Below, one piece after another: positions 1 to 10,474 of a DNA stretch of 10,474 nucleotides. The notes under the pieces were generated by a model that was not told the DNA's origin, ran no database searches, and saw only the letters and a program-made list of their open reading frames with translations. The position numbers were made by a program, and so were the translations under genes. This stretch comes from a virus (taxonomy: Duplodnaviria; Heunggongvirae; Uroviricota; Caudoviricetes). Each line of letters opens with the position of its first letter. Position 1 is the stretch's first letter. The stretch lies in the IMG/VR virus record IMGVR_UViG_2698536570_000004. The stretch is one strand, 5' to 3'.

Positions 1-711
1 CTGACTGAGCCGCACTTCAGAGATGAAAAACCGTTTGACGCCATCGTATCTAACCCACCGTATTCGGTGAAATGGATTGGCAGCGATGACCCGACGCTGA
101 TTAACGATGAACGTTTTGCCCCGGCTGGCGTTCTGGCCCCCAAATCCAAAGCTGACTTTGCGTTTGTATTACATGCGCTGAACTATCTTTCTGCCAAAGG
201 TCGTGCTGCGATTGTCTGCTTCCCGGGCATTTTTTACCGTGGCGGCGCGGAGCAGAAAATCCGTCAGTATCTGGTTGAAAATAACTATGTCGAAACCGTG
301 ATTTCACTGGCACCGAACCTGTTCTTTGGCACCACCATTGCCGTAAATATTCTGGTGCTGTCTAAACATAAAACGGATACCAAAGTTCAGTTTATTGACG
401 CCAGCGAACTGTTCAAAAAAGAGACTAACAACAACATCCTGACCGATGCCCATATCGAAAAAATTATGCAGGTATTTTCCAGCAAGGAAGATGTTGCTCA
501 TCTGGCGAAATCTGTCACGTTTGAGACCGTTGTCGCGAATGACTATAACCTGTCGGTAAGCAGCTATGTGGAAGCGAAAGATAACCGCGAAATTATCGAT
601 ATCGGTGAGCTGAATGCTGAGCTGAAAACCACGGTCAGCAAAATCGACCAGTTGCGTAAAGATATTGATGCAATTGTGGCTGAAATTGAAGGCTGCGAGG
701 TGCAAAAATGA
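1..711 (+). CDS. hsdM: Type I restriction-modification methyltransferase subunit HsdM, C-terminal part (5' end lies upstream of the window)
   Basis: Frame 1 is open from nt 1 to TGA at 709-711. Translation from nt 1 gives [25 protein letters not shown]..., with the N6-adenine methyltransferase NPPY motif at nt 52-63. The stop overlaps the hsdS start (ATGA at 708-711). The 67..711 ORF in the track is the same frame starting at an internal GTG. Confidence 0.9.
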
Positions 712-1964
712 GCGAGTTAAGTTATCTGGAAAAATTGCTGGATGGGGTTGAGGTTGAGTGGAAACCCTTGAAGGATGTTTGTGATTTTAAAAATGGATTT
801 GCATTTAAAAGCAGCTTATTTAAAGAAACTGGGTTACCGATAGTCAGAATCACAAATATAGATGGATTTAATGTTGACTTAGATGAGGTGAAATACTTTT
901 CACTAAATGATTACAAGGAAGATTTATCCTCCTTTGAGGTATCTATGGGAAATATATTGATTGCAATGTCAGGTGCCACTACAGGAAAGGTAGGAATTTA
1001 TAAAAAAGGAACAAAATGTTATCTTAACCAACGGGTTGGGAAATTCATACCCAAAGAAAATATTCTAAACAATAATTATTTATACCATTTTTTATTGTTA
1101 AATACAGAGACTATTTATATCCTCGCCGGGGGCGGAGCACAACCGAACCTAAGCTCAAATGCATTGATGTCAAAACTACTCATCCCAATCCCTTGCCCGG
1201 ATAATCCGGAAAAATCCCTTGCCATCCAGTCTGAAATCGTTCGGATTCTGGATAAATTTACTGCACTTACCGCTGAGCTTACCGCTGAGCTTAACATGCG
1301 TAAAAAACAGTACAACTACTATCGCGACCAATTGCTGAGTTTTGATGAGGGTGAGGTTGAGTGGAAGGCATTGGGAGAAGTAGCCAAAATACAACGAGGG
1401 GCATCCCCCAGACCAATTGTTAATTATCTTACTGAACAAGGAAATGGTATCCCATGGATTAAAATCGGAGATACTATACCCGGCTCTAAATACATTGACA
1501 AAACCTTACAAAAAATAACTGCAGAGGGTGCCCAAAAATCGCGAATCTTGAACCCCGGTGATTTCGTCATTTCTAACTCTATGAGCTTTGGCAGACCATA
1601 TATTTTAAGGATAACCGGAGCTATCCATGATGGATGGGCATCAATCAGCAATTTTGGTGAAAAATTAAATGCTGATTATCTGTATCACTATCTTTCATCA
1701 AAAAAGGTGAAAAATTATTGGGAAAGTAAAATCAATAGCGGGTCGGTCAGTAACTTGAATGCAGATATTATAAAAACATTACCAGTGCCATTGCCTGATA
1801 AACAGAAACAAGAGCGAATATCTGCTCTGCTCGATAAATTCGACACCCTGACCAACTCCATCACCGAAGGTCTTCCGCGTGAAATCGAGTTGCGCCAGAA
1901 ACAATACGAGTACTATCGTGATTTACTGTTCAGTTTCCCAACACCTGAAACTGTCAGTAATTAA
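708..1964 (+). CDS. hsdS: Type I restriction-modification specificity subunit HsdS (418 aa), type IC-like
   Basis: ATG at 708 overlaps the hsdM stop. The protein has the HsdS architecture: two variable target-recognition domains separated by a conserved central region (...[33 protein letters not shown]) and a matching C-terminal conserved region (...[36 protein letters not shown]). The tandem TAEL repeat is the signature of the EcoR124I family as I recall it. Confidence 0.92.
1266..1293 (+). repeat. Tandem 12-bp repeat CTTACCGCTGAG x2 plus partial third unit (CTTA), encoding LTAELTAEL in the HsdS central conserved region
   Basis: Direct reading: 1266-1277 and 1278-1289 are identical 12-mers in frame with hsdS, and 1290-1293 repeats the first 4 nt. 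Confidence 0.9.
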
Positions 1965-2085
1965 TTGACCATTGCTACCGACCGGGCCACCTTAACACCC
2001 GGTCTGTATATAGACTATTTTTTACGCGCCGGAAGTCACTCTTAACGCCCTTCCGGCCCTTGCCAGGCGGCACAAAGGATGCGCT
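1965..2085 (+). promoter_or_regulatory. hsdS-hsdR intergenic region: probable hsdR promoter region, two stem-loops and the hsdR ribosome-binding site
   Basis: The 121-bp gap holds stem-loop 1 (GACCGGG 1980-1986 / CCCGGTC 1998-2004) and stem-loop 2 (GCCGGAAG 2028-2035 / CTTCCGGC 2050-2057). Both loops contain CTTAAC. There is a TATATA at 2007-2012, a T-run at 2018-2023, and AAGGAT 6 nt upstream of the ATG at 2086. No clean -35/-10 pair could be fixed by eye. Confidence 0.4.
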
Positions 2086-5000
2086 ATGACTCATCAAACA
2101 CACACCATTGCTGAATCCAATAACTTTATCGTCCTTGATAAGTACATCAAAGCTGAGCAAACAGGCGACAGCTACCAGAGCGAATCGGACCTGGAACGTG
2201 AACTGATTCAGGACCTGCGGAATCAGGGCTATGAATTTATATCCGTAAAATCTCAGTCGGCTATGCTGTCCAATGTTCGGGAACAGCTTCAGAGCCTCAA
2301 TGGTGTGGTGTTTAATGACAGCGAGTGGCGGCGTTTCACGGAGCAGTATCTGGACAACCCGAGCGATGGCATTCTGGATAAGACCCGTAAAATCCATATC
2401 GACTATATTTGCGACTTTATTTTTGATGACGAGCGACTTGAGAACATCTATTTGATAGATAAAAAGAATCTCATGCGCAATAAGGTGCAGATTATCCAGC
2501 AGTTTGAACAGACGGGTTCTCATGCTAACCGTTATGACGTCACGATCCTGGTTAATGGCTTACCACTGGTACAAATCGAACTGAAAAAGCGCGGCGTGGC
2601 GATTCGTGAGGCTTTCAACCAGATACATCGTTACAGTAAAGAGAGTTTTAACAGCGAAAATTCCCTGTTTAAGTATCTGCAACTGTTTGTCATTTCTAAC
2701 GGCACCGATACCCGTTATTTTGCCAACACAACAAAGCGCGATAAAAACAGTTTTGACTTCACCATGAACTGGGCGAAATCAGACAACACGCTGATTAAAG
2801 ACCTCAAAGATTTTACCGCTACCTTTTTCCAGAAACATACTCTGCTTAATGTTCTGGTGAACTACAGCGTTTTTGACAGCAGTCAGACGCTACTGGTGAT
2901 GCGACCGTACCAGATTGCTGCCACCGAGCGCATTCTGTGGAAAATTAAGAGCTCCTTTACAGCGAAGAACTGGTCAAAACCGGAAAGCGGTGGGTATATC
3001 TGGCACACTACCGGTTCTGGTAAAACCCTCACCAGCTTTAAAGCCGCGCGTCTGGCAACAGAGCTGGACTTTATTGATAAAGTCTTCTTCGTGGTCGACA
3101 GGAAAGACCTCGATTACCAGACCATGAAGGAATATCAGCGTTTTTCGCCAGACAGCGTCAACGGCTCGGAAAATACCGCAGGCCTTAAACGAAATCTGGA
3201 TAAGGACGATAACAAAATTATCGTCACTACTATTCAGAAACTCAATAACCTGATGAAAGCAGAAAGCGACCTGCCTGTATATAATCAGCAAGTGGTGTTT
3301 ATATTTGATGAATGCCACCGCAGCCAGTTTGGAGAAGCGCAGAAAAACCTGAAGAAGAAATTCAAACGCTATTATCAGTTTGGTTTTACCGGCACCCCTA
3401 TTTTCCCGGAAAACGCCTTAGGCTCAGAAACAACCGCCAGCGTATTTGGTCGTGAATTGCATTCGTATGTAATTACCGATGCGATTCGTGACGAAAAAGT
3501 GCTCAAATTCAAGGTGGACTACAACGATGTGCGGCCACAGTTTAAGTCTTTAGAGACAGAAACTGACGAGAAAAAACTGAGTGCGGCTGAAAATCAGCAG
3601 GCGTTTCTTCATCCCATGCGTATTCAGGAAATCACGCAATATATTCTGAATAATTTCCGCCAGAAAACCCACCGTACCTTCCCTGGCTCAAAAGGTTTTA
3701 ATGCTATGTTGGCAGTGAGCAGCGTGGATGCTGCAAAAGCCTATTACGCGACGTTTAAACGGTTACAAGAGGAAGCAGCTAATAAATCGGCCACCTATAA
3801 ACCGCTGCATATTGCGACAATCTTCTCCTTTGCTGCCAATGAAGAACAAAATGCCATTGGTGAAATTTCCGATGAAACTTTTGATACCAGCGCAATGGAC
3901 AGCAGTGCTAAAGAGTTTCTTGATGCTGCAATTCGTGAGTATAACAGCTATTTTAAAACTAACTTCAGCACCGACAGTAACGGTTTTCAGAACTACTATC
4001 GTGATTTAGCCCAGCGGGTTAAAAATCAGGATATCGATCTGTTAATTGTCGTGGGGATGTTTTTAACTGGCTTCGATGCTCCAACATTGAACACGCTATT
4101 CGTCGATAAAAACCTGCGTTTTCACGGCTTGATGCAGGCATTTTCCCGCACCAACCGTATTTATGATGCAACTAAAACCTTCGGTAATATCGTCACTTTC
4201 CGGGATCTGGAACGCTCAACTATTGATGCCATAACGCTGTTTGGTGACAAAAATACCAAAAATGTGGTTTTAGAAAAGAGTTATGCAGAGTATATGGAAG
4301 GCTTTACTGATGCTGCCACTGGTGAAGCTAAACGCGGCTTCATGACAGTAGTTTCAGAACTGGAACAACGGTTCCCTGACCCTACCAGTATTGAAAGTGA
4401 AAAAGAGAAGAAAGACTTCGTTAAACTGTTTGGTGAATACCTGCGTACCGAGAACATCCTGCAAAACTATGATGAATTTGCCACGCTGAAAGCCCTGCAA
4501 CAAATCGATCTTAGCGATCCTGTTGCAGTAGAAAAATTCAAAGCAGAACATTATGTGGATGATGAAAAGCTCGCTGAATTGCAAACAATTCGTCTCCCTG
4601 CTGATCGCAAGATTCAGGATTATCGTTCTGCCTATAACGATATTCGCGACTGGCAGCGCCGTGAGAAAGAAGCTGAGAAAAAAGAGAAATCAACCACTGA
4701 CTGGGATGACGTAGTTTTTGAGGTCGATTTGCTGAAGTCTCAGGAAATAAACCTGGATTATATCCTTGGACTGATTTTCGAACACAACAGACAAAATAAA
4801 GGCAAGGGCGAAATGATCGAAGAGGTCAAACGCTTAATTCGTTCAAGCCTAGGGAACCGTGCTAAAGAGGGCCTGGTGGTCGATTTTATTCAGCAAACGA
4901 ACCTGGATGATTTACCGGACAAAGCCAGCATCATTGACGCATTCTTTACGTTTGCTCAACGCGAACAGCAACGTGAAGCAGAAGCATTGATAAAAGAAGA

Positions 5001-5202
5001 AAATCTCAATGAAGATGCAGCAAAACGCTATATTCGCACGTCTTTAAAACGCGAATACGCCACCGAAAATGGCACAGAATTAAACGAAACATTACCAAAA
5101 CTTAGTCCGTTGAATCCGCAATATAAAACGAAAAAACAGGCAGTTTTCCAGAAAATCGTCTCGTTTATTGAGAAGTTTAAAGGCGTAGGCGGAAAAATAT
5201 AG
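2086..5202 (+). CDS. hsdR: Type I restriction enzyme R subunit HsdR (1038 aa), type IC-like
   Basis: A 3117-nt ORF with an RBS. It has an N-terminal PD-(D/E)xK-like nuclease region (...[19 protein letters not shown]...), Walker A TGSGKT (about nt 3010-3027), a DEAH-type motif II as DECH (nt 3307-3318), and a TGTP motif III. Its length and co-linearity with hsdM-hsdS fit the EcoR124I-type HsdR as I recall it. Confidence 0.95.
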
Positions 5203-5218
5203 CCCAATTCGTATTTTT

Positions 5219-5246
5219 CTTGCGGGTTCTTAATTAAACCCGCAAG
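5219..5246. other. Stem-loop between convergent hsdR and a minus-strand small ORF (10-bp stem CTTGCGGGTT / AACCCGCAAG, loop CTTAATTA); possible non-canonical terminator
   Basis: A perfect 10-bp inverted repeat read directly. No U-run follows on either strand (TTTTT precedes it on +), so its terminator function is uncertain. Confidence 0.3.
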
Positions 5247-5281
5247 AGACCGTGGGGTTCCAAATGGCTAATATACTCCCC

Positions 5282-5368
5282 TTACCCATGCGCGACAATG
5301 CTGCCAAAAGTGATAGAGAACAGCCAGAAATAGATCGCGGCCATAATGATTTTGAATGCCGTGTTCAT
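5282..5368 (-). CDS. Candidate small hydrophobic protein (28 aa, MNTAFKIIMAAIYFWLFSITFGSIVAHG); small membrane peptide or type I toxin-like
   Basis: ATG at 5368 (minus) is preceded by AGGAG with an 8-nt spacer. The 28 codons are strongly hydrophobic and end at TAA (5282-5284). A possible sigma70-like promoter (TTGATA, 17 nt, GAAAAT) lies upstream on the minus strand around 5425-5455. A 41-codon ORF on the opposite strand (5264-5389) overlaps it, so the coding strand is not settled. Confidence 0.3.
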   Translation of the reverse strand: MNTAFKIIMAAIYFWLFSITFGSIVAHG

Positions 5369-5395
5369 ATCTTCAGCTCCTGTGATTGATTTGAT

Positions 5396-5430
5396 ACATG
5401 CCGCGCCCCTTGCGGCATGTTTTTATTTTC
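5396..5430 (+). terminator. Rho-independent terminator-like hairpin on the + strand (stem ACATGCCGC / GCGGCATGT followed by TTTTTATTTTC)
   Basis: A 9-bp GC-rich stem (5396-5404 / 5412-5420) with a 7-nt loop, followed directly by a T-rich run to 5430. On the minus strand the same hairpin would sit in the 5' UTR of the small ORF at 5368. Confidence 0.55.
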
Positions 5431-5456
5431 ACCTTCTCTGCTTTAAATATCAAGAT

Positions 5457-5469
5457 TTATTAGAGCAAT
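5457..5469 (+). repeat. 13-bp motif TTATTAGAGCAAT, copy 1; followed by TATTGCT, making the palindrome AGCAAT-T-ATTGCT (5464-5476)
   Basis: Exact 13-mer shared with 7599-7611 and, as reverse complement, with 7546-7558. It overlaps the stop codon of the minus-strand phosphatase gene. Confidence 0.7.
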
Positions 5470-5975
5470 TATTGCTGATGAAGAAGCGCGTTTTCATACT
5501 CCCTGACCATTAACGTAAGCACGCCGTGACGCCTGAAAACACGCGCCACTTCAATCTTATCTTCCAGCGCGAACGCAATTTTGCTTAGACCAATTTTCTT
5601 AAGGAGATCAATCTTTGCTGGACCGTCATTTCTGTCATCGGTGGCAGGACGCATAGATAGCAAAGGCTCATCCCCGTTTGTTACGTACTTTCGCAGCCAG
5701 GCTCATGTTTTATCCCTTGCGATCTCACAGCGCCCGGTTACAAACCAGACCGTGTAAACGTTATATAACTGGCGCACAATATCAATAACTGGAGTTATGG
5801 GAGTATCAGTGTCACAGGCGAGATTAAACTCGTTCCAGTCCTTTGTTAATGCACCTTTACCTGGTGGCGGAAGCAAATGCAGTCTGTCTTCAGTTGCCTC
5901 TGATATTGTTCCATCAATATCAACTATGACGATATACGGACGTTCATGGTGTGCGTGTTGGTTGAAAATACTCAA
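5469..5975 (-). pseudogene. HAD-superfamily phosphatase resembling phage polynucleotide kinase 3'-phosphatase domains, interrupted by an in-frame TGA
   Basis: TTG start at 5975 preceded by a strong SD (GAGGAGG). The N-terminal part has HAD motif I (IVIVDIDGT) and, from recall of T4 Pnk, a ...CDTD..TGR... segment. The frame hits TGA at 5703-5705 and then continues in the same frame to TAA at 5469-5471, with a DDR-containing C-terminal part. The track shows this as two ORFs (5703..5975 and 5469..5663) in one frame. Confidence 0.55.
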
Positions 5976-5992
5976 ATGCCCTCCTCATTGGA

Positions 5993-6029
5993 CGAAAAAA
6001 ATGCTGGTGGGACGCACTCCACCAGCATT
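5993..6029 (-). terminator. Rho-independent terminator for the minus-strand 420-aa gene (stem AATGCTGGTGG / CCACCAGCATT followed by a U-run on the minus strand)
   Basis: An 11-bp perfect inverted repeat (6000-6010 / 6019-6029) with an 8-nt loop. The A-run at 5995-6000 on + gives a T-run immediately 3' of the hairpin on the minus strand. It lies 20 nt downstream of the stop at 6049-6051. Confidence 0.65.
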
Positions 6030-6048
6030 AAAAGTGACACTGTAACTA

Positions 6049-7311
6049 TCAGCGAACGTAAATAGTACCGCCGTTCTCTTTTTCCCATGCATCGCTACGT
6101 GCATAGCAAACATCGAGAAGTCTTCTTGCCGCAGTTTCTTCTAAACCCAATTCAACAACCAACTGCTCATGACGGCGGGTAACTACATCAAATAGGCTAT
6201 GCAGCCCTTTATTGGCCAGTTCATCAATGAATTCCGGTTCGAACGGTAGCTCTGCATCTGCCAACATAACCTCTTGCGCCCACTCGACACGGCGGACCAG
6301 TTCCGGGCGGCGGCTTTCCATCTCTTTACAGATCATTTCATGGAAGAACTCTACCCAACCTTCCGGCTGGAACTCGCGGAAAATGGCCAACGGCTGGAAG
6401 TTTGGCATCAACCATTCGTTGATACGGATATCAATGGCATAGCCCATGTCACAGCAGAACTGATAAGCAAAGTCCAGCTTAGAAACGATATAAGGACGCT
6501 CGTTATTGAACTCTTTAGGCGATGAGATTCCATAAGCCAGGAGGCGCGGGAAGAATGAGATTTGCCCTAACGTCGGATGGAGTTTGCTTGCAGGAAAACG
6601 GCGCTCAGTAATGCCATACATTTCCTTCTTGAGCATCGCAAATTTAGCATTTTCATTAACCAGCTCGGTAACCTCTGCTTTTTTATTAGCAAATGCCACG
6701 CGCGCCTCGCTTGCATCTTTAATAGCCTTTTTGAGCTGTTGGTTAAGGTCGGCGACCTGCTTACGCAGTTCCTGGCGCTCGCTTTTGGCTTTGTTATAAC
6801 GTTTCTCAAGGTTAAAAGGATCAAGTTTCATGATCTCTTTATATTGAGATTTTAGTGTTGAAATCTGTGAATTCCGCAGCTCAACCATAGCGGTCATTTC
6901 ATTGAGTTTTGTTTCCAACTCAATGCTTATACGTTCGGCATTATCAGCACGCTGGTTGGCGTCATGCGTCGCATCGTCGATGGCATCCTGTTGCTGGCGT
7001 TTCAAATGCTCAATTTGCAGCTGAAGATCTTCAATTTCTTTACCCTTCAGACCGAGATCCAACTGCATATTTTCAGCTGCATCTACCAGGTCGTTATGGC
7101 TATCAGCTTCTGCGTTATAAACATCAATAAGCTGTGCGTGAAGCATCTCAGCTGACTGAACCGCATTATCAAAAAAACGTGCTGTGAGGTCATCACAACT
7201 AACGCGGCGTTGCGCGGCTCGGATGTTCTGAATAATGGCCGGGATACCGGCATTCAGGACGTCAGGGATAGATACATTTTCGATTGATTGGTTTTGTGCT
7301 GAAGTGCTCAT
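6049..7311 (-). CDS. Hypothetical protein (420 aa): N-terminal coiled-coil region of about 230 aa rich in Q/E/K/A, and a C-terminal globular domain of unknown function
   Basis: A long ORF with the ATG at 7311 one nucleotide downstream of the preceding gene's stop, and its own terminator after the stop. No catalytic motif recognised. Confidence 0.75.
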   Translation of the reverse strand: MSTSAQNQSIENVSIPDVLNAGIPAIIQNIRAAQRRVSCDDLTARFFDNAVQSAEMLHAQLIDVYNAEADSHNDLVDAAENMQLDLGLKGKEIEDLQLQIEHLKRQQQDAIDDATHDANQRADNAERISIELETKLNEMTAMVELRNSQISTLKSQYKEIMKLDPFNLEKRYNKAKSERQELRKQVADLNQQLKKAIKDASEARVAFANKKAEVTELVNENAKFAMLKKEMYGITERRFPASKLHPTLGQISFFPRLLAYGISSPKEFNNERPYIVSKLDFAYQFCCDMGYAIDIRINEWLMPNFQPLAIFREFQPEGWVEFFHEMICKEMESRRPELVRRVEWAQEVMLADAELPFEPEFIDELANKGLHSLFDVVTRRHEQLVVELGLEETAARRLLDVCYARSDAWEKENGGTIYVR

Positions 7312-7312
7312 T

Positions 7313-7531
7313 TCAAAGTTCCGTATTAGCTTGTGCTTCGGTCATTTTTCCTAAGTATGAAGGTGGAAGGACTACGCAATTTGTATCCAGTCCCTCACCA
7401 ATGGCAGCCTGTAAAATTCTGGCTAAGGTGAGTCTCTTGTTGCGATACCGGGTGATGACATGCCTGATATCGCCGGACGGTGTAACAAAGGCGATCAGCC
7501 AGTAGTGATATTTCCGTCGGAATGGCCACAT
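7313..7531 (-). CDS. Hypothetical small protein (72 aa)
   Basis: ATG at 7531 preceded by AGGTG with a 4-nt spacer; the stop at 7313-7315 lies 1 nt from the start of the 420-aa gene, suggesting co-translation. No recognised family. Confidence 0.5.
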   Translation of the reverse strand: MWPFRRKYHYWLIAFVTPSGDIRHVITRYRNKRLTLARILQAAIGEGLDTNCVVLPPSYLGKMTEAQANTEL

Positions 7532-7545
7532 AGTGCACCTTATGG

Positions 7546-7558
7546 ATTGCTCTAATAA
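7546..7558 (-). repeat. 13-bp motif, inverted copy (ATTGCTCTAATAA on +, which is TTATTAGAGCAAT on -)
   Basis: Exact reverse complement of the 13-mer at 5457-5469 and 7599-7611. With the 7599-7611 copy it forms a 13-bp inverted repeat flanking a 40-bp spacer. Confidence 0.7.
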
Positions 7559-7583
7559 AAAACGTGATGAGTGTACATCACGT
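7555..7583 (-). terminator. Candidate rho-independent terminator on the minus strand after the 233-aa gene (stem ACGTGATG / CATCACGT, loop AGTGTA, then T-run on the minus strand)
   Basis: An 8-bp perfect inverted repeat (7562-7569 / 7576-7583). The A-run at 7554-7561 on + gives TTTTTTATT directly 3' of the hairpin on the minus strand. Confidence 0.45.
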
Positions 7584-7598
7584 ATTAAAAATATGGAA

Positions 7599-7611
7599 TT
7601 ATTAGAGCAAT
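7599..7611 (+). repeat. 13-bp motif TTATTAGAGCAAT, copy 3
   Basis: Exact direct repeat of 5457-5469. It lies immediately 3' of the stop codon (7613-7615) of the 233-aa minus-strand gene. Confidence 0.7.
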
Positions 7612-7612
7612 A

Positions 7613-8314
7613 TTATTCTAATTCTCGCTCAAAAAACGAGCTAATGAGGGGAAGCCAATCCTCTGACACTTCGCGAGGCCGCGGTTTGCCGTGGAAAAAG
7701 ATTATTCGGCAGTCCTTTGGTAATGTCCCATTCCCCCTGGAGTAACGCGCGCTCGCATATTTTGAACCAGGTTCCACAACATCGGCCTTGTAACTTACAA
7801 ACCATCCTGGATACAGATCCTGAAATGCTGGTGTGTCATCGCCCATAACCTTCCGCAAGAACCCCTGATCCCCCCAGCACTCAGTTGTAACACAACGAGC
7901 AATCCAACCTTCCGGATCTTGCCAGAATGCACTCCAGATATGCGCTTTTACACTATTTGGTATCCACAGAGCACCGCTGCCACGATATTGTGGATGGTAA
8001 AAATCCCTAAGCATGGTGAAGTTGGTTGGTGGATTCTCAAGAATTGGGCGTATATCACCGGCAATAACCGTGTCCAAATCCAGATAGAACAGATCATCGG
8101 TTATATCAGGTCGGAACAACTCGATTTTCGCCCACCAGCCACGGCACTTTTGCCACTGGTTGATTAATGGGACAACCTTAACGCCTGGCACATGTAAACG
8201 CTTCAGGTCTGTCAGGCAAATAATTTCATAGCCTTTTGGCAGTTGATTAACCAGCCACTGCACATCGGAAGCGTTATAGTCACCACCAGAGCGAAGAACT
8301 AAAGCAATCTTCAT
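7613..8314 (-). CDS. Hypothetical protein (233 aa), possibly a nucleotide-sugar glycosyltransferase-like enzyme (acidic LDLD, DxD-like motif)
   Basis: ATG at 8314 overlaps the upstream phosphatase stop (ATGA). It contains ...[13 protein letters not shown]... and a C-terminal ...[10 protein letters not shown]... segment. The glycosyltransferase call rests only on the DxD-like motif and is weak. Confidence 0.7.
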
Positions 8315-9003
8315 GCTGCACCATCACCTTTCACTTTCATCAATGTCAGGTTTCCGCAAAATACGGCACCAGTGTCGATATAATGCTGATTCCAGAATGT
8401 CTTCGGGCTTTTCACCGGAGTGTGACCAAAGATAAAACGATCTGCGCCCGAAATTTCGCCACCAATATCATCCATCGAATCACTGATACGCTCGCGCGCC
8501 CAGACAACGTTGAAAAGCGGCACCTCCTTACCGAATTGATATTCATTATCCGGATAGTCGGCATGAGCTATAACGATAGTTTCTTGCCCGGTGTTCAACT
8601 CAATGATATAGGGCAGTCGTCTTACCAACTCCACCAGCGCCCTGGCTAATATTTCCTGATCAGCGTCCAGCATGAAGAACCATTGACCGCCATTCATTAG
8701 CCAGTTATTCACGTTGCCATCAGGACTTAACGCATCAATCATCAGCCGCTCATGGTTGCCCATAACCGCTCTGAACCATGGCATCTGCAATAGCTCCAGG
8801 CATTTAACATTTTCGGTGCCGCGATCGATAAGGTCGCCGACCGATATCAGTAAATCCTGCGCCGGGTCAAAATCCACACGATGGAGTTCGGACATCAGTC
8901 TGGTGTAGCAACCATGCAGATCACCAACAACCCAGACATTCCTGTATTTGGTCCCGTCGATACGGTGATAAATTGTTGGTGCCATCATGTATTCTTCAGC
9001 CAT
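8311..9003 (-). CDS. Ser/Thr protein phosphatase of the calcineurin-like metallophosphatase family (lambda NinI / E. coli PrpA-PrpB-like)
   Basis: Metallophosphatase motifs GDLHG, GDLIDRG and GNHE, and a C-terminal ...[17 protein letters not shown]... The overall pattern matches lambda NinI-type phosphatases from recall. The likely true start is the second ATG pair (M6/M7, about 8985-8988), which overlaps the upstream gene's TGA. Confidence 0.88.
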
Positions 9004-9611
9004 TCTTTAAGAGTCATCTGCGGAATACCTCCCATTTTCCCGCATGAAACAACGTCAATCTGTTCACGCGCAGACTGGAATAACAAAGGCAGGTGACTTA
9101 GATTTTTTGGCGTGCCGCCGGAGTGAACGCGTGGTTCTTGCGTAGCGTCAACGCCCACCAGGGCTACATGTTTGAATCCGATATGGAAAGCCAGGTTCAG
9201 AGCACCATATGCACTATTGCCGCTGGCAATTTCATTCTCATCTTCGCAAAGGCCGAAATGTGCGGACCAGCGCCACGCCCACCACTCGGGAGAATTCGTA
9301 TTTTTTGGCTCCGTGCCGCGCTCAGCCACACGACGGAAGCACAGAACGCCGTCTCTGACCTCACGTTCTTTAACATTGGGTAGCGCCATGCAATAACAAA
9401 CACCACGGCGACGGCGGCCACGACCAACGCGCCGCATATTGTCTGGCGATGGATCAAGGGTGAAAAAATAAGAAGCGCGGTTAAGCCAGTCGATGGCCCC
9501 ATTGACCGCTATAATCGGCACTCCGCGCGGCGCAACAAAGTTTGCGGCGCTAGGGCCACTGCCGACGATAATAACGCGATCACTGCCTCTAAATTTATTC
9601 TTGGGAAACAT
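8985..9611 (-). CDS. Rossmann-type protein, paralog B (208 aa): N-terminal VGSGPS glycine loop, IIAVN strand, [26 protein letters not shown] motif; carries an Arg-rich insert ([11 protein letters not shown])
   Basis: ATG at 9611. The motif order matches the sialyltransferase GT42 / MptE-like (DUF115) pattern as I recall it. It is paralogous to the adjacent upstream gene, and the Arg-rich segment is encoded at about 9402-9434. Confidence 0.7.
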
Positions 9612-10171
9612 TGAATTGCACTGCTCCTACTTGCATTCAAAATATGTAAATCTGCGTGTTTTTTGCGGGTATCCAGGAACTGCTGTTGCCATTTTGAAAT
9701 AGACACCTGCGTTGGATTCCGTAGTGCTTGAGGGTGTGCTCCATGCCAATGAAGGCCGTTTTGCAGAGAACAGTCATAGCCGACTAATACAACTACTTCA
9801 GCCCCTGATTCAGCCGCCAGACTGATAGCCTGCGCGCCGCTATTAACCCCTTCAGCCGGTCCACAATATCGCCTGTACTCCAACGAAAATGATTTCGCCG
9901 CCGCCAGGTTGGCTGTCACTTTGCGGAATCTCCCTCCCGGTATGGTGGATCCGTATTGCTTCCACCATGACAAATCACCGGCGTATAAGGCATAAATGTC
10001 ATCGAACATCTGCCAGGAATTGTTAACCGCGATGATTGAACAGCCAGTTTTTTCTATAGCAGCACAGTCCTCACGAGTGAGTGACGGACCGCTACCGACA
10101 CAAAAAACAGTCCTAGTCGCCCTGGGTGGTATGTTCATTCTCAGCTGCAAATTCAGCCTCCAGGCGAGCAT
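9509..10171 (-). CDS. Rossmann-type protein, paralog A (209-220 aa): VGSGPS glycine loop, IIAVN, GVNSGAQAISLAAESGAEVVVLVGYD
   Basis: The ORF runs from 10171 to TAG at 9509-9511. The more likely start is the internal ATG at 10136-10138 (MNIPPRATRTVFCVGSGPS), which matches the spacing in paralog B. Its 3' end overlaps the start of paralog B by 103 nt in another frame. Confidence 0.7.
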   Translation of the reverse strand: MLAWRLNLQLRMNIPPRATRTVFCVGSGPSLTREDCAAIEKTGCSIIAVNNSWQMFDDIYALYAGDLSWWKQYGSTIPGGRFRKVTANLAAAKSFSLEYRRYCGPAEGVNSGAQAISLAAESGAEVVVLVGYDCSLQNGLHWHGAHPQALRNPTQVSISKWQQQFLDTRKKHADLHILNASRSSAIQCFPRINLEAVIALLSSAVALAPQTLLRRAECRL

Positions 10172-10268
10172 TCATTTCAGCGATTACCGGGTCCACTACA
10201 GCATCTGCTTCCTGTTCATTACGCGGCATGATCGATGCCAGCGATTCATAATTAGCCTTGGATGACAC
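10113..10268 (-). CDS. Hypothetical small acidic protein (51 aa, MSSKANYESLASIMPRNEQEADAVVDPVIAEMNARLEAEFAAENEHTTQGD)
   Basis: GTG at 10266-10268 preceded by GGGAGA with a 6-nt spacer. The stop overlaps the start region of paralog A. The track ORF 10113..10310 is the same frame extended upstream to a GTG with no RBS. Confidence 0.45.
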   Translation of the reverse strand: MSSKANYESLASIMPRNEQEADAVVDPVIAEMNARLEAEFAAENEHTTQGD

Positions 10269-10334
10269 GATTATTCTCCCGATGTTAATGTGCGCTATAT
10301 CAAAGAGCACACATGCACTAATTAATTTATTATT

Positions 10335-10474
10335 TCACGCAGCGTACAACCACTTGTCACCGTTCAATACATGCTCAATAGCCTCACCCTTTTTAAGGCT
10401 CATGTATTCCAGGAGGCACTGTTGCAAATAGTCGGTGGTGATAAACTTATCATCCCCTTTTGCTGATGGAGCTG
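10335..10474 (-). CDS. Hypothetical protein, C-terminal 45 codons only (gene continues beyond the right edge)
   Basis: The minus-strand frame is open from the window edge to TGA at 10335-10337 (...APSAKGDDKFITTDYLQQCLLEYMSLKKGEAIEHVLNGDKWLYAA). No family recognised from this fragment. Confidence 0.4.
   Translation of the reverse strand, partial: APSAKGDDKFITTDYLQQCLLEYMSLKKGEAIEHVLNGDKWLYAA

Follow-up and report, generated by a model that had tools for sequence, protein, structure and literature searches.

Can a type I restriction-modification (RM) system be placed in a well-characterised family when both target recognition domains (TRDs) of its specificity subunit, HsdS, differ from those of the family prototype, and what do such TRDs tell of their origin and of the DNA that they read? 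The question is raised by a window of 10,474 nt, the whole stretch of DNA analysed here, in which hsdM, hsdS and hsdR adjoin the backbone of a P1-like phage-plasmid (Table 1). EcoR124I and EcoR124II, the type IC prototypes, are encoded by plasmid R124 and recognise GAAN6RTCG and GAAN7RTCG, respectively; EcoDXXI (TCAN7RTTC) and EcoprrI (CCAN7RTGC) are other classical type IC enzymes. The family was classically defined by subunit complementation and antibody cross-reactivity. In type IC operons, hsdM and hsdS are co-transcribed and hsdR lies downstream with its own promoter.

Table 1. Features of the window, with their positions and the observations that delimit them
Feature	Position	Strand	Basis
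hsdM 3' part (N6-adenine methyltransferase subunit), last 237 codons	1–711	+	open from base 1, NPPY
hsdS, type IC specificity subunit	708–1964	+	intact ORF, 418 codons/418 aa
N-terminal conserved segment of HsdS, includes upstream flanking repeat x (741–770)	708–761	+	similarity to L002 allele ends at 761
TRD1 cassette, AT-rich	762–1184	+	breakpoints 761/1185 relative to L002
Central conserved region: coiled-coil spacer with TAEL repeats	1185–1379	+	conserved relative to EcoR124I
Two TAEL repeats, 2 x 12 nt, TAELTAEL, aa 188–195	1269–1292	+
TRD2 cassette, AT-rich	about 1380–1829 (start 1379/1395)	+	breakpoints relative to L003 and L004
C-terminal conserved segment of HsdS, opens with downstream flanking repeat y (LDKF; 1830–1840)	1830–1964	+
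hsdS-hsdR spacer, 121 nt, one promoter-like site (1992–2021)	1965–2085	+	ORF map, consensus scan
hsdR, restriction/translocase subunit, 1038 aa, intact	2086–5202	+
P1 backbone: C1 operator/promoter region of pmgT, pap, pmgS, pmgR, pmgQ, ppp, pmgP, pmgO	5278–10417

The hsdM part encodes a Pfam N6_Mtase domain (E = 8.5e-61), and the C-terminal 214 aa of HsdM were ~97% identical to residues 307–520 of the EcoR124 M protein (7bst_D). The stop codon of hsdM overlaps the start of hsdS in the ATGA at 708–711. HsdR has HSDR_N, SWI2_SNF2, T1R_D3-like and EcoR124_C domains (Pfam) and was ~99% identical to EcoR124I HsdR (2w00_A) over its full length of 1038 aa (2286 bits). The ORF map revealed no prrC-like gene in the 121-nt spacer between hsdS and hsdR. 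The promoter-like site in the spacer is a weak match, with 9 of 12 consensus positions and 0.6 such sites expected by chance. HsdS is already annotated, under a generic RefSeq name, as WP_054626026.1 in NZ_CP073625; it has two Methylase_S stretches (Pfam, E = 1e-43) and aligned end to end with the EcoR124 HsdS chain 7bst_A (E = 1.8e-83). In silico, membership of the type IC family has been tied to HsdM and HsdR identities above about 90% to known members (PMC5399793). The identities found here, ~99% for HsdR and ~97% for the C-terminus of HsdM (the C-terminal 237 hsdM codons being in the window), lie above that value.

The alignment with 7bst_A resolved HsdS into the type IC layout: a short N-terminal conserved segment, TRD1, a central conserved region, TRD2 and a C-terminal conserved segment. 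Identity to EcoR124I was 90% over aa 1–20, 86% over aa 148–220 and 96% over aa 374–418, compared to 17% over aa 21–147 (TRD1) and 24% over aa 221–373 (TRD2). A preliminary description of this DNA, made from the sequence alone, had recognised conserved N-terminal, central and C-terminal segments framing two variable regions and had judged the TRDs not to be recognisably EcoR124I-like; the alignment bore out both observations. It had set the variable regions at 780–1130 and 1380–1800, which places them correctly but makes them slightly narrow compared to the cassette boundaries in Table 1. The cassettes are bordered by direct repeats. Repeat x recurs at 1344–1373, where it closes the central conserved region, and its two copies are 83% identical, while repeat y pairs with 1248–1258.

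The likeness to EcoR124I extends to the gene order, hsdM-hsdS-gap-hsdR, and to the two TAEL repeats, around which the 18-residue linker is the same as in 7bst_A. HsdR, the HsdM C-terminus and the conserved HsdS segments are near-identical in the two systems, whereas both TRDs are unrelated in sequence. EcoDXXI and EcoprrI share the family architecture with the window system but have three TAEL repeats (PMC3874165) compared to two here, and EcoprrI has prrC between hsdS and hsdR where the window has a 121-nt gap without a gene. Two further, distant type IC loci encode an AAA-type ATPase in the interval from hsdS to hsdR, where EcoprrI has prrC: L009, on a contig of 36% GC (7238–8392; Pfam AAA_13), and L008, from Zymomonas pZM32 (3716–4876). 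Collectively, the comparisons with EcoR124I suggest that the locus is very probably an EcoR124-type (type IC) RM system in which an EcoR124I-like frame holds exchanged TRD cassettes. HsdM, HsdR and the three conserved segments of HsdS, which would supply the coiled-coil spacer and M-subunit docking, would be essentially those of EcoR124I, and a frame of this kind implies the type IC mechanism (PMC3874165).

The frame and the TRDs have different distributions. In megablast comparisons with hsdS, 899 plasmid records and 1303 of 5426 complete E. coli genomes contained the frame, whereas a match over at least 80% of hsdS was found in only four plasmid records and three genome assemblies. Relatives typically shared one TRD only. 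TRD2 was 99% identical at the amino acid level in an E. coli plasmid allele (L002) and 79–80% identical in a Salmonella Tennessee plasmid allele (L005), with TRD1 identities of 20% and 25%, respectively; conversely, a K. pneumoniae plasmid allele (L004) had 87% identity in TRD1 and 22% in TRD2. The transitions are sharp. Nucleotide homology to L002 stops at 761 and picks up again at 1185, and that to L003 and L004 stops at 1394/1378 and picks up again at 1830. L003 is the type IC hsdS of the E. coli ET201 chromosome (3001–5462), which has the TRD1 type at 98.9% nucleotide identity and the TRD2 half of which is broken by an IS3-family element.

Pairings among relatives were equally varied. In a set of 107 full-length HsdS relatives, which is a biased sample of top matches that each share something with the query and in which TRD boundaries were set by fuzzy anchors, the TRD1 type was paired with 25 slot-2 TRD clusters and the TRD2 type with 16 slot-1 TRD clusters; only three of the 107 proteins contained both types together. 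Of the 5426 complete E. coli genomes, 14 contained the TRD1 type and 13 contained the TRD2 type. The full pair was found in three assemblies of that collection, representing two strains, and the plasmid collection contributed one further record, NZ_MN510446. Relatives that share a single TRD, sharp breakpoints and many partner combinations agree with the TRD shuffling suggested in the preliminary description, and the reading of hsdS as a mosaic produced by TRD exchange through recombination in the conserved flanks is well supported. Both TRDs would be interchangeable cassettes, installed by homologous recombination in the short conserved flanking sequences, and the resulting organisation of hsdS would be x-TRD1-y-x-TRD2-y. 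At a greater distance, the hsdS genes of L009 and L010, proteins of a kind that the search ranking would favour finding, have the same TRD1 and TRD2 pair (58–70% amino acid identity) in type IC frames that are only 57–67% identical. Since the same pair occurs in distant frames and the TRDs and frames have diverged to a similar extent, the pair may be old rather than the product of a recent shuffle.

TRDs of this family were also found to change slots. Several P1-like plasmids from E. coli and E. fergusonii have the TRD1 cassette in the second hsdS slot (96–97% nucleotide identity). In the proteins of two such alleles, L006 and L007, the slot-2 TRD was 97–98% identical in amino acid sequence to the window TRD1, and the stretch 722–1258 of the window, which comprises TRD1 and its flanks, corresponds to 1147–1683 of L006 and 2454–2990 of L007 (96% nucleotide identity). 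The moved TRD1 brings its own flanks, 13 residues before the domain and 26 after it. In the set of 107 relatives, four had the TRD1 type in slot 2. To our knowledge, slot movement of TRDs is undescribed for the type IC family, and a limited literature search found no paper on it in the enterobacterial type IC family. The hsdS alleles show the features of domain movement, namely TRDs flanked by internal direct repeats and one TRD type, TRD1, in both slots among alleles. The x-TRD1-y-x-TRD2-y layout has been proposed as the substrate of TRD exchange and domain movement (Furuta 2011, PMC3077401). The same layout, flanking repeats and slot switching occur in the domain movement of Helicobacter pylori and Streptococcus pyogenes hsdS (PMC3077401; PMC8597746); the present case differs in concerning an enterobacterial type IC family and P1-like plasmids. 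Three metagenomic type IC HsdS relatives (P0245, P0246 and P0247) have the TRD2-type domain in both slots; the slot-2 domain is ~74% identical to the window TRD2, and slot 1 contains a domain of this type too. Because a TRD2-type domain fills both slots, these proteins should recognise a palindromic bipartite site.

What the window enzyme recognises can be approached through its TAEL repeats and its TRDs. The number of TAEL repeats sets the spacing between half-sites, and EcoR124I has two repeats (N6; 7 bases between the methylated adenines) compared to three in EcoR124II, EcoDXXI and EcoprrI (PMC3874165). Type IC targets are asymmetric and bipartite, with one methylated adenine per strand; the two adenines lie 7 bases apart with two TAEL repeats and 8 with three. 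The two repeats found here would give the EcoR124I placement of these adenines, separated by 7 bases. We infer that an M2S1 complex would methylate, and an R2M2S1 complex restrict, a bipartite target, TRD1 and TRD2 each reading one of its two half-sites; the activity of the enzyme, the half-site spacing and the half-site identities are all predictions from sequence comparison. Since both TRDs are unrelated to those of EcoR124I, the half-sites must, on this evidence, differ, and the predicted target is one other than GAAN6RTCG.

Candidate half-sites were sought in a library of 38 TRDs, composed of 36 TRDs from S. aureus (targets known for 32; PMC5399793 supplement) and the two EcoR124I TRDs. 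The best match of TRD2 was TRD W (CRAA/TTYG), with 30% identity and E = 2e-23; the next best scored 46 bits. TRD1 matched domains reading GAAY, CCAY and GAA weakly (E = 1e-4 to 6e-4), and these matches were set aside as uninformative. The 38-TRD library contained no informative characterised relative of TRD1, and the 5' half-site was not predictable from it.

Two relatives of TRD2 come from strains or systems with published motifs. The S. Tennessee phage-plasmid pCFSAN076210, a non-mobilizable plasmid of ~110 kb, encodes a type IC system with the same frame as the window and a TRD2 that is 80% identical at the amino acid level, but differs in TRD1 (25% identity) and in having three TAEL repeats. 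Strains of S. Tennessee carrying this 80%-identical TRD2 have two type I motifs, GRTAN8TTYG and GAACN7GTA. GRTAN8TTYG is the probable target of the plasmid system rather than of the chromosomal one, since it is the only motif that fits the 8-base adenine interval of three TAEL repeats; adenine spacing is the only basis of this assignment, which is ours and not that of the authors who published the motifs. The HsdS encoded by plasmid pZM32 of Zymomonas mobilis is type IC-like and has TAEL repeats; the TRD in its first slot shares 63% identity with the window TRD2. The pZM32 system differs from that of the window in having the related TRD in slot 1, three TAEL repeats and an AAA ATPase gene between hsdS and hsdR. 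Deletion and methylome analysis established that the pZM32 system, HsdRMSp, recognises GAAGN7TCC, the half-sites of which (GAAG and GGA) do not match the TTYG lead. The TRD of this HsdSp had the same best library match as the window TRD2, TRD W, although GAAGN7TCC lacks CRAA/TTYG; the 30% match to TRD W was therefore rejected as a predictor of the half-site. TTYG (CRAA on the other strand) may still be the 3' half-site read by TRD2, a tentative proposal that we judge somewhat more likely to be wrong than right. We place close to an even balance, leaning only slightly against it, the reading that the TRD pair would recognise, with EcoR124I-like adenine spacing, a 3–4 bp half-site followed by N6–7TTYG, a target unlisted for any characterised enzyme, and that the type IC locus of P1-like phage-plasmids would be a hotspot of TRD reassortment and slot movement.

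The published record was also searched for motifs. A Klebsiella methylome survey (PMC9684165) reported type I motifs, some of them with TTYG, as well as a plasmid-borne type IC motif, TTCAN7TTC; it contained no motif assignable to a TRD1-type allele. Other papers with TTYG motifs concerned Gram-positive bacteria or unrelated strains and were discarded. Searches on the methylation or genome of E. coli AW1.7, whose plasmid carries the window hsdS, and on six related HsdS RefSeq accessions returned no methylome and no link to a motif, and a search on hsdS of P1-like phage-plasmids found nothing relevant.

The main alternative is that the specificity is not novel and that one or both TRDs, or the whole allele, match a REBASE enzyme of known target, so that known half-sites are re-used. 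Such a match might be expected of a protein that is in RefSeq and whose exact sequence occurs in at least 21 public contigs, to which 91 contigs with a version differing at two residues can be added, particularly if, as we assume, the carrier genomes have probably often been sequenced on methylome-yielding platforms. A search with the full-length protein yielded relatives with generic names only. Many other alleles contain each TRD type, and a methylome is published for the strains of S. Tennessee in which the 80%-identical TRD2 occurs. However, few complete E. coli genomes have either TRD type, the full pair is limited to the two strains (three assemblies) and the plasmid record NZ_MN510446 mentioned above, and no paper found in the literature ties these HsdS proteins or AW1.7 to a motif. 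Among the listed complete-genome E. coli carriers of the TRD1 or TRD2 type, we know of none that is a strain with a published methylome. We regard re-use of known half-sites as a serious possibility that nonetheless falls well short of even. The probable novel specificity put forward in the preliminary description stands relative to EcoR124I, the one classical type IC enzyme covered by the TRD comparison; beyond EcoR124I the claim did not hold at that strength, and a new specificity is, as judged from the TRD sequences, plausible.

The cassettes are also set apart by base composition. The overall GC content was 0.325 in TRD1 (0.31–0.33 depending on boundaries) and 0.381 in TRD2, compared to 0.449 in conserved hsdS, 0.463 in hsdM and 0.434 in hsdR, and no equal-length window elsewhere in the 10.5 kb was as low (minimum 0.402–0.403). 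At codon position 3, where the deficit is concentrated, GC (GC3) was 0.312 in TRD1 (762–1184) and 0.320 in TRD2. The corresponding value was 0.487 in hsdM and hsdR (Fisher test, p = 8e-5 for TRD1 and 1.3e-4 for TRD2) and 0.508 in conserved hsdS (p = 0.0012 and 0.002, respectively). The TRD2 dip is weak by overall GC (p = 0.02–0.05) but as clear as the TRD1 dip by GC3. Both measures confirmed the earlier observation that the variable regions are more AT-rich than hsdM, hsdR and the conserved HsdS segments; the GC profile of hsdS, for which a flat course would have spoken against it, has two dips. The edges of these dips coincide with the nucleotide breakpoints relative to the related alleles.

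AT-rich TRDs were found in all eight related alleles examined. In six enterobacterial alleles, the window's own included, TRD GC3 was 0.28–0.36 compared to 0.47–0.59 in the conserved parts, and in two distant type IC loci on contigs of 36–40% GC the TRDs were the most AT-rich part, with GC3 of 0.16–0.26. This constancy, which extends to hosts of 36–40% GC and looks more like a property of a domain class than of one donor, could be taken to mean that AT-richness reflects the amino acid composition or functional constraint of DNA-binding domains rather than a separate origin, and GC1 of the TRDs is indeed lowered as well. However, GC is most strongly reduced at synonymous third positions (GC3 of 0.31–0.32 compared to 0.49–0.51), and GC2 of TRD2 (0.405) exceeds that of the conserved segments (0.33). 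The GC3 deficit together with the higher GC2 in TRD2 argues that amino acid composition is not the main cause of the AT-richness, and TRD exchange is independently evidenced by the breakpoints and the reassortment. We consider an explanation from composition or constraint improbable. Relatives of the TRDs were found in Halomonas, Aeromonas, Aggregatibacter, Helicobacter and Prevotella, and further in Fusobacterium, Acinetobacter, Leptospira, Streptococcus and Zymomonas. Because TRDs are AT-rich in all alleles and have relatives across many phyla, their composition marks them as a horizontally circulating class of module. AT-richness is a family trait and does not mark the window allele as exceptional. 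Its source may be donor composition or a general bias. The TRD cassettes would be drawn from a pool that circulates across many bacterial families, and this pool, AT-rich at synonymous sites wherever seen, would make the cassettes stand out compositionally.

The window derives from a P1-like phage-plasmid. The hsdS gene was 100% identical in two assemblies of a plasmid of E. coli AW1.7, which is ~103–106 kb, IncY and non-mobilizable. The source record, NZ_CP073625, has hsdM and hsdS at 92503–95312. Upstream of hsdM it contains c1, pacAB, lpa and phd/doc, which identifies the plasmid as a P1-like phage-plasmid. P1 homology resumes at 5278, the right end of the hsd cassette, and the backbone from this point (query base 76 onward) was 96% identical to P1, P7, SJ46 and RCS47, with PHROG matches. 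On the left, P1 homology stops just past the phd promoter (about 8341 of L001). The hsdMSR genes sit in the phd-to-pap gap, where they replace humD-lxr-hot-upfMNO-pmgVUT of P1; the junctions correspond to positions 84163 and 87650 of P1 (AF234173). In the P1 GenBank annotation, an identity of 96–98% is recorded between these junctions and both the sequences bordering the EcoDXXI hsd locus and that downstream of R124/3 hsdR. According to this annotation, P1 sequence adjoins the EcoDXXI hsd locus on both sides, phd/doc-like on one and pap-side on the other, which is the insertion point in the window, and R124/3 has P1-like sequence downstream of hsdR at the same junction as the window. The placement of a type IC hsd locus in a P1-derived context is already on record. 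In the window, pap (5467–5975, minus strand) has a premature stop after codon 90 (ARDKT followed by the stop, compared to ARDKTRAW in P1, where the protein has 168 aa). The frame beyond the stop is still readable, the source record lists no gene there, and pap is probably a pseudogene in this plasmid. Scans of the window for tRNA genes and Rfam families were empty. That the RM system is a decayed or inactive remnant with TRDs that have no current specificity is very improbable: the adjoining pap gene has a premature stop and one related chromosomal allele is interrupted by IS3, but both hsdS and hsdR are intact genes of full length whose products have every domain expected, HsdR is ~99% identical to its active counterpart in EcoR124I, the hsdM portion within the window is an open frame with the NPPY motif, and the annotation of the source plasmid gives hsdM in its entirety as intact.

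The allele adds no new principle, since TRD exchange, the control of spacing by TAEL repeats and AT-rich variable regions in hsdS are already established. By carrying a type I specificity, a phage-plasmid helps to decide which DNA enters its host, and every new TRD pair contributes a further barrier pattern among the lineages of E. coli. Knowledge of the target would help in transforming or transducing carrier strains, such as the heat-resistant food isolate AW1.7, although its practical value is modest. The population data illustrate cleanly how TRDs are reassorted and swap slots on P1-like plasmids.
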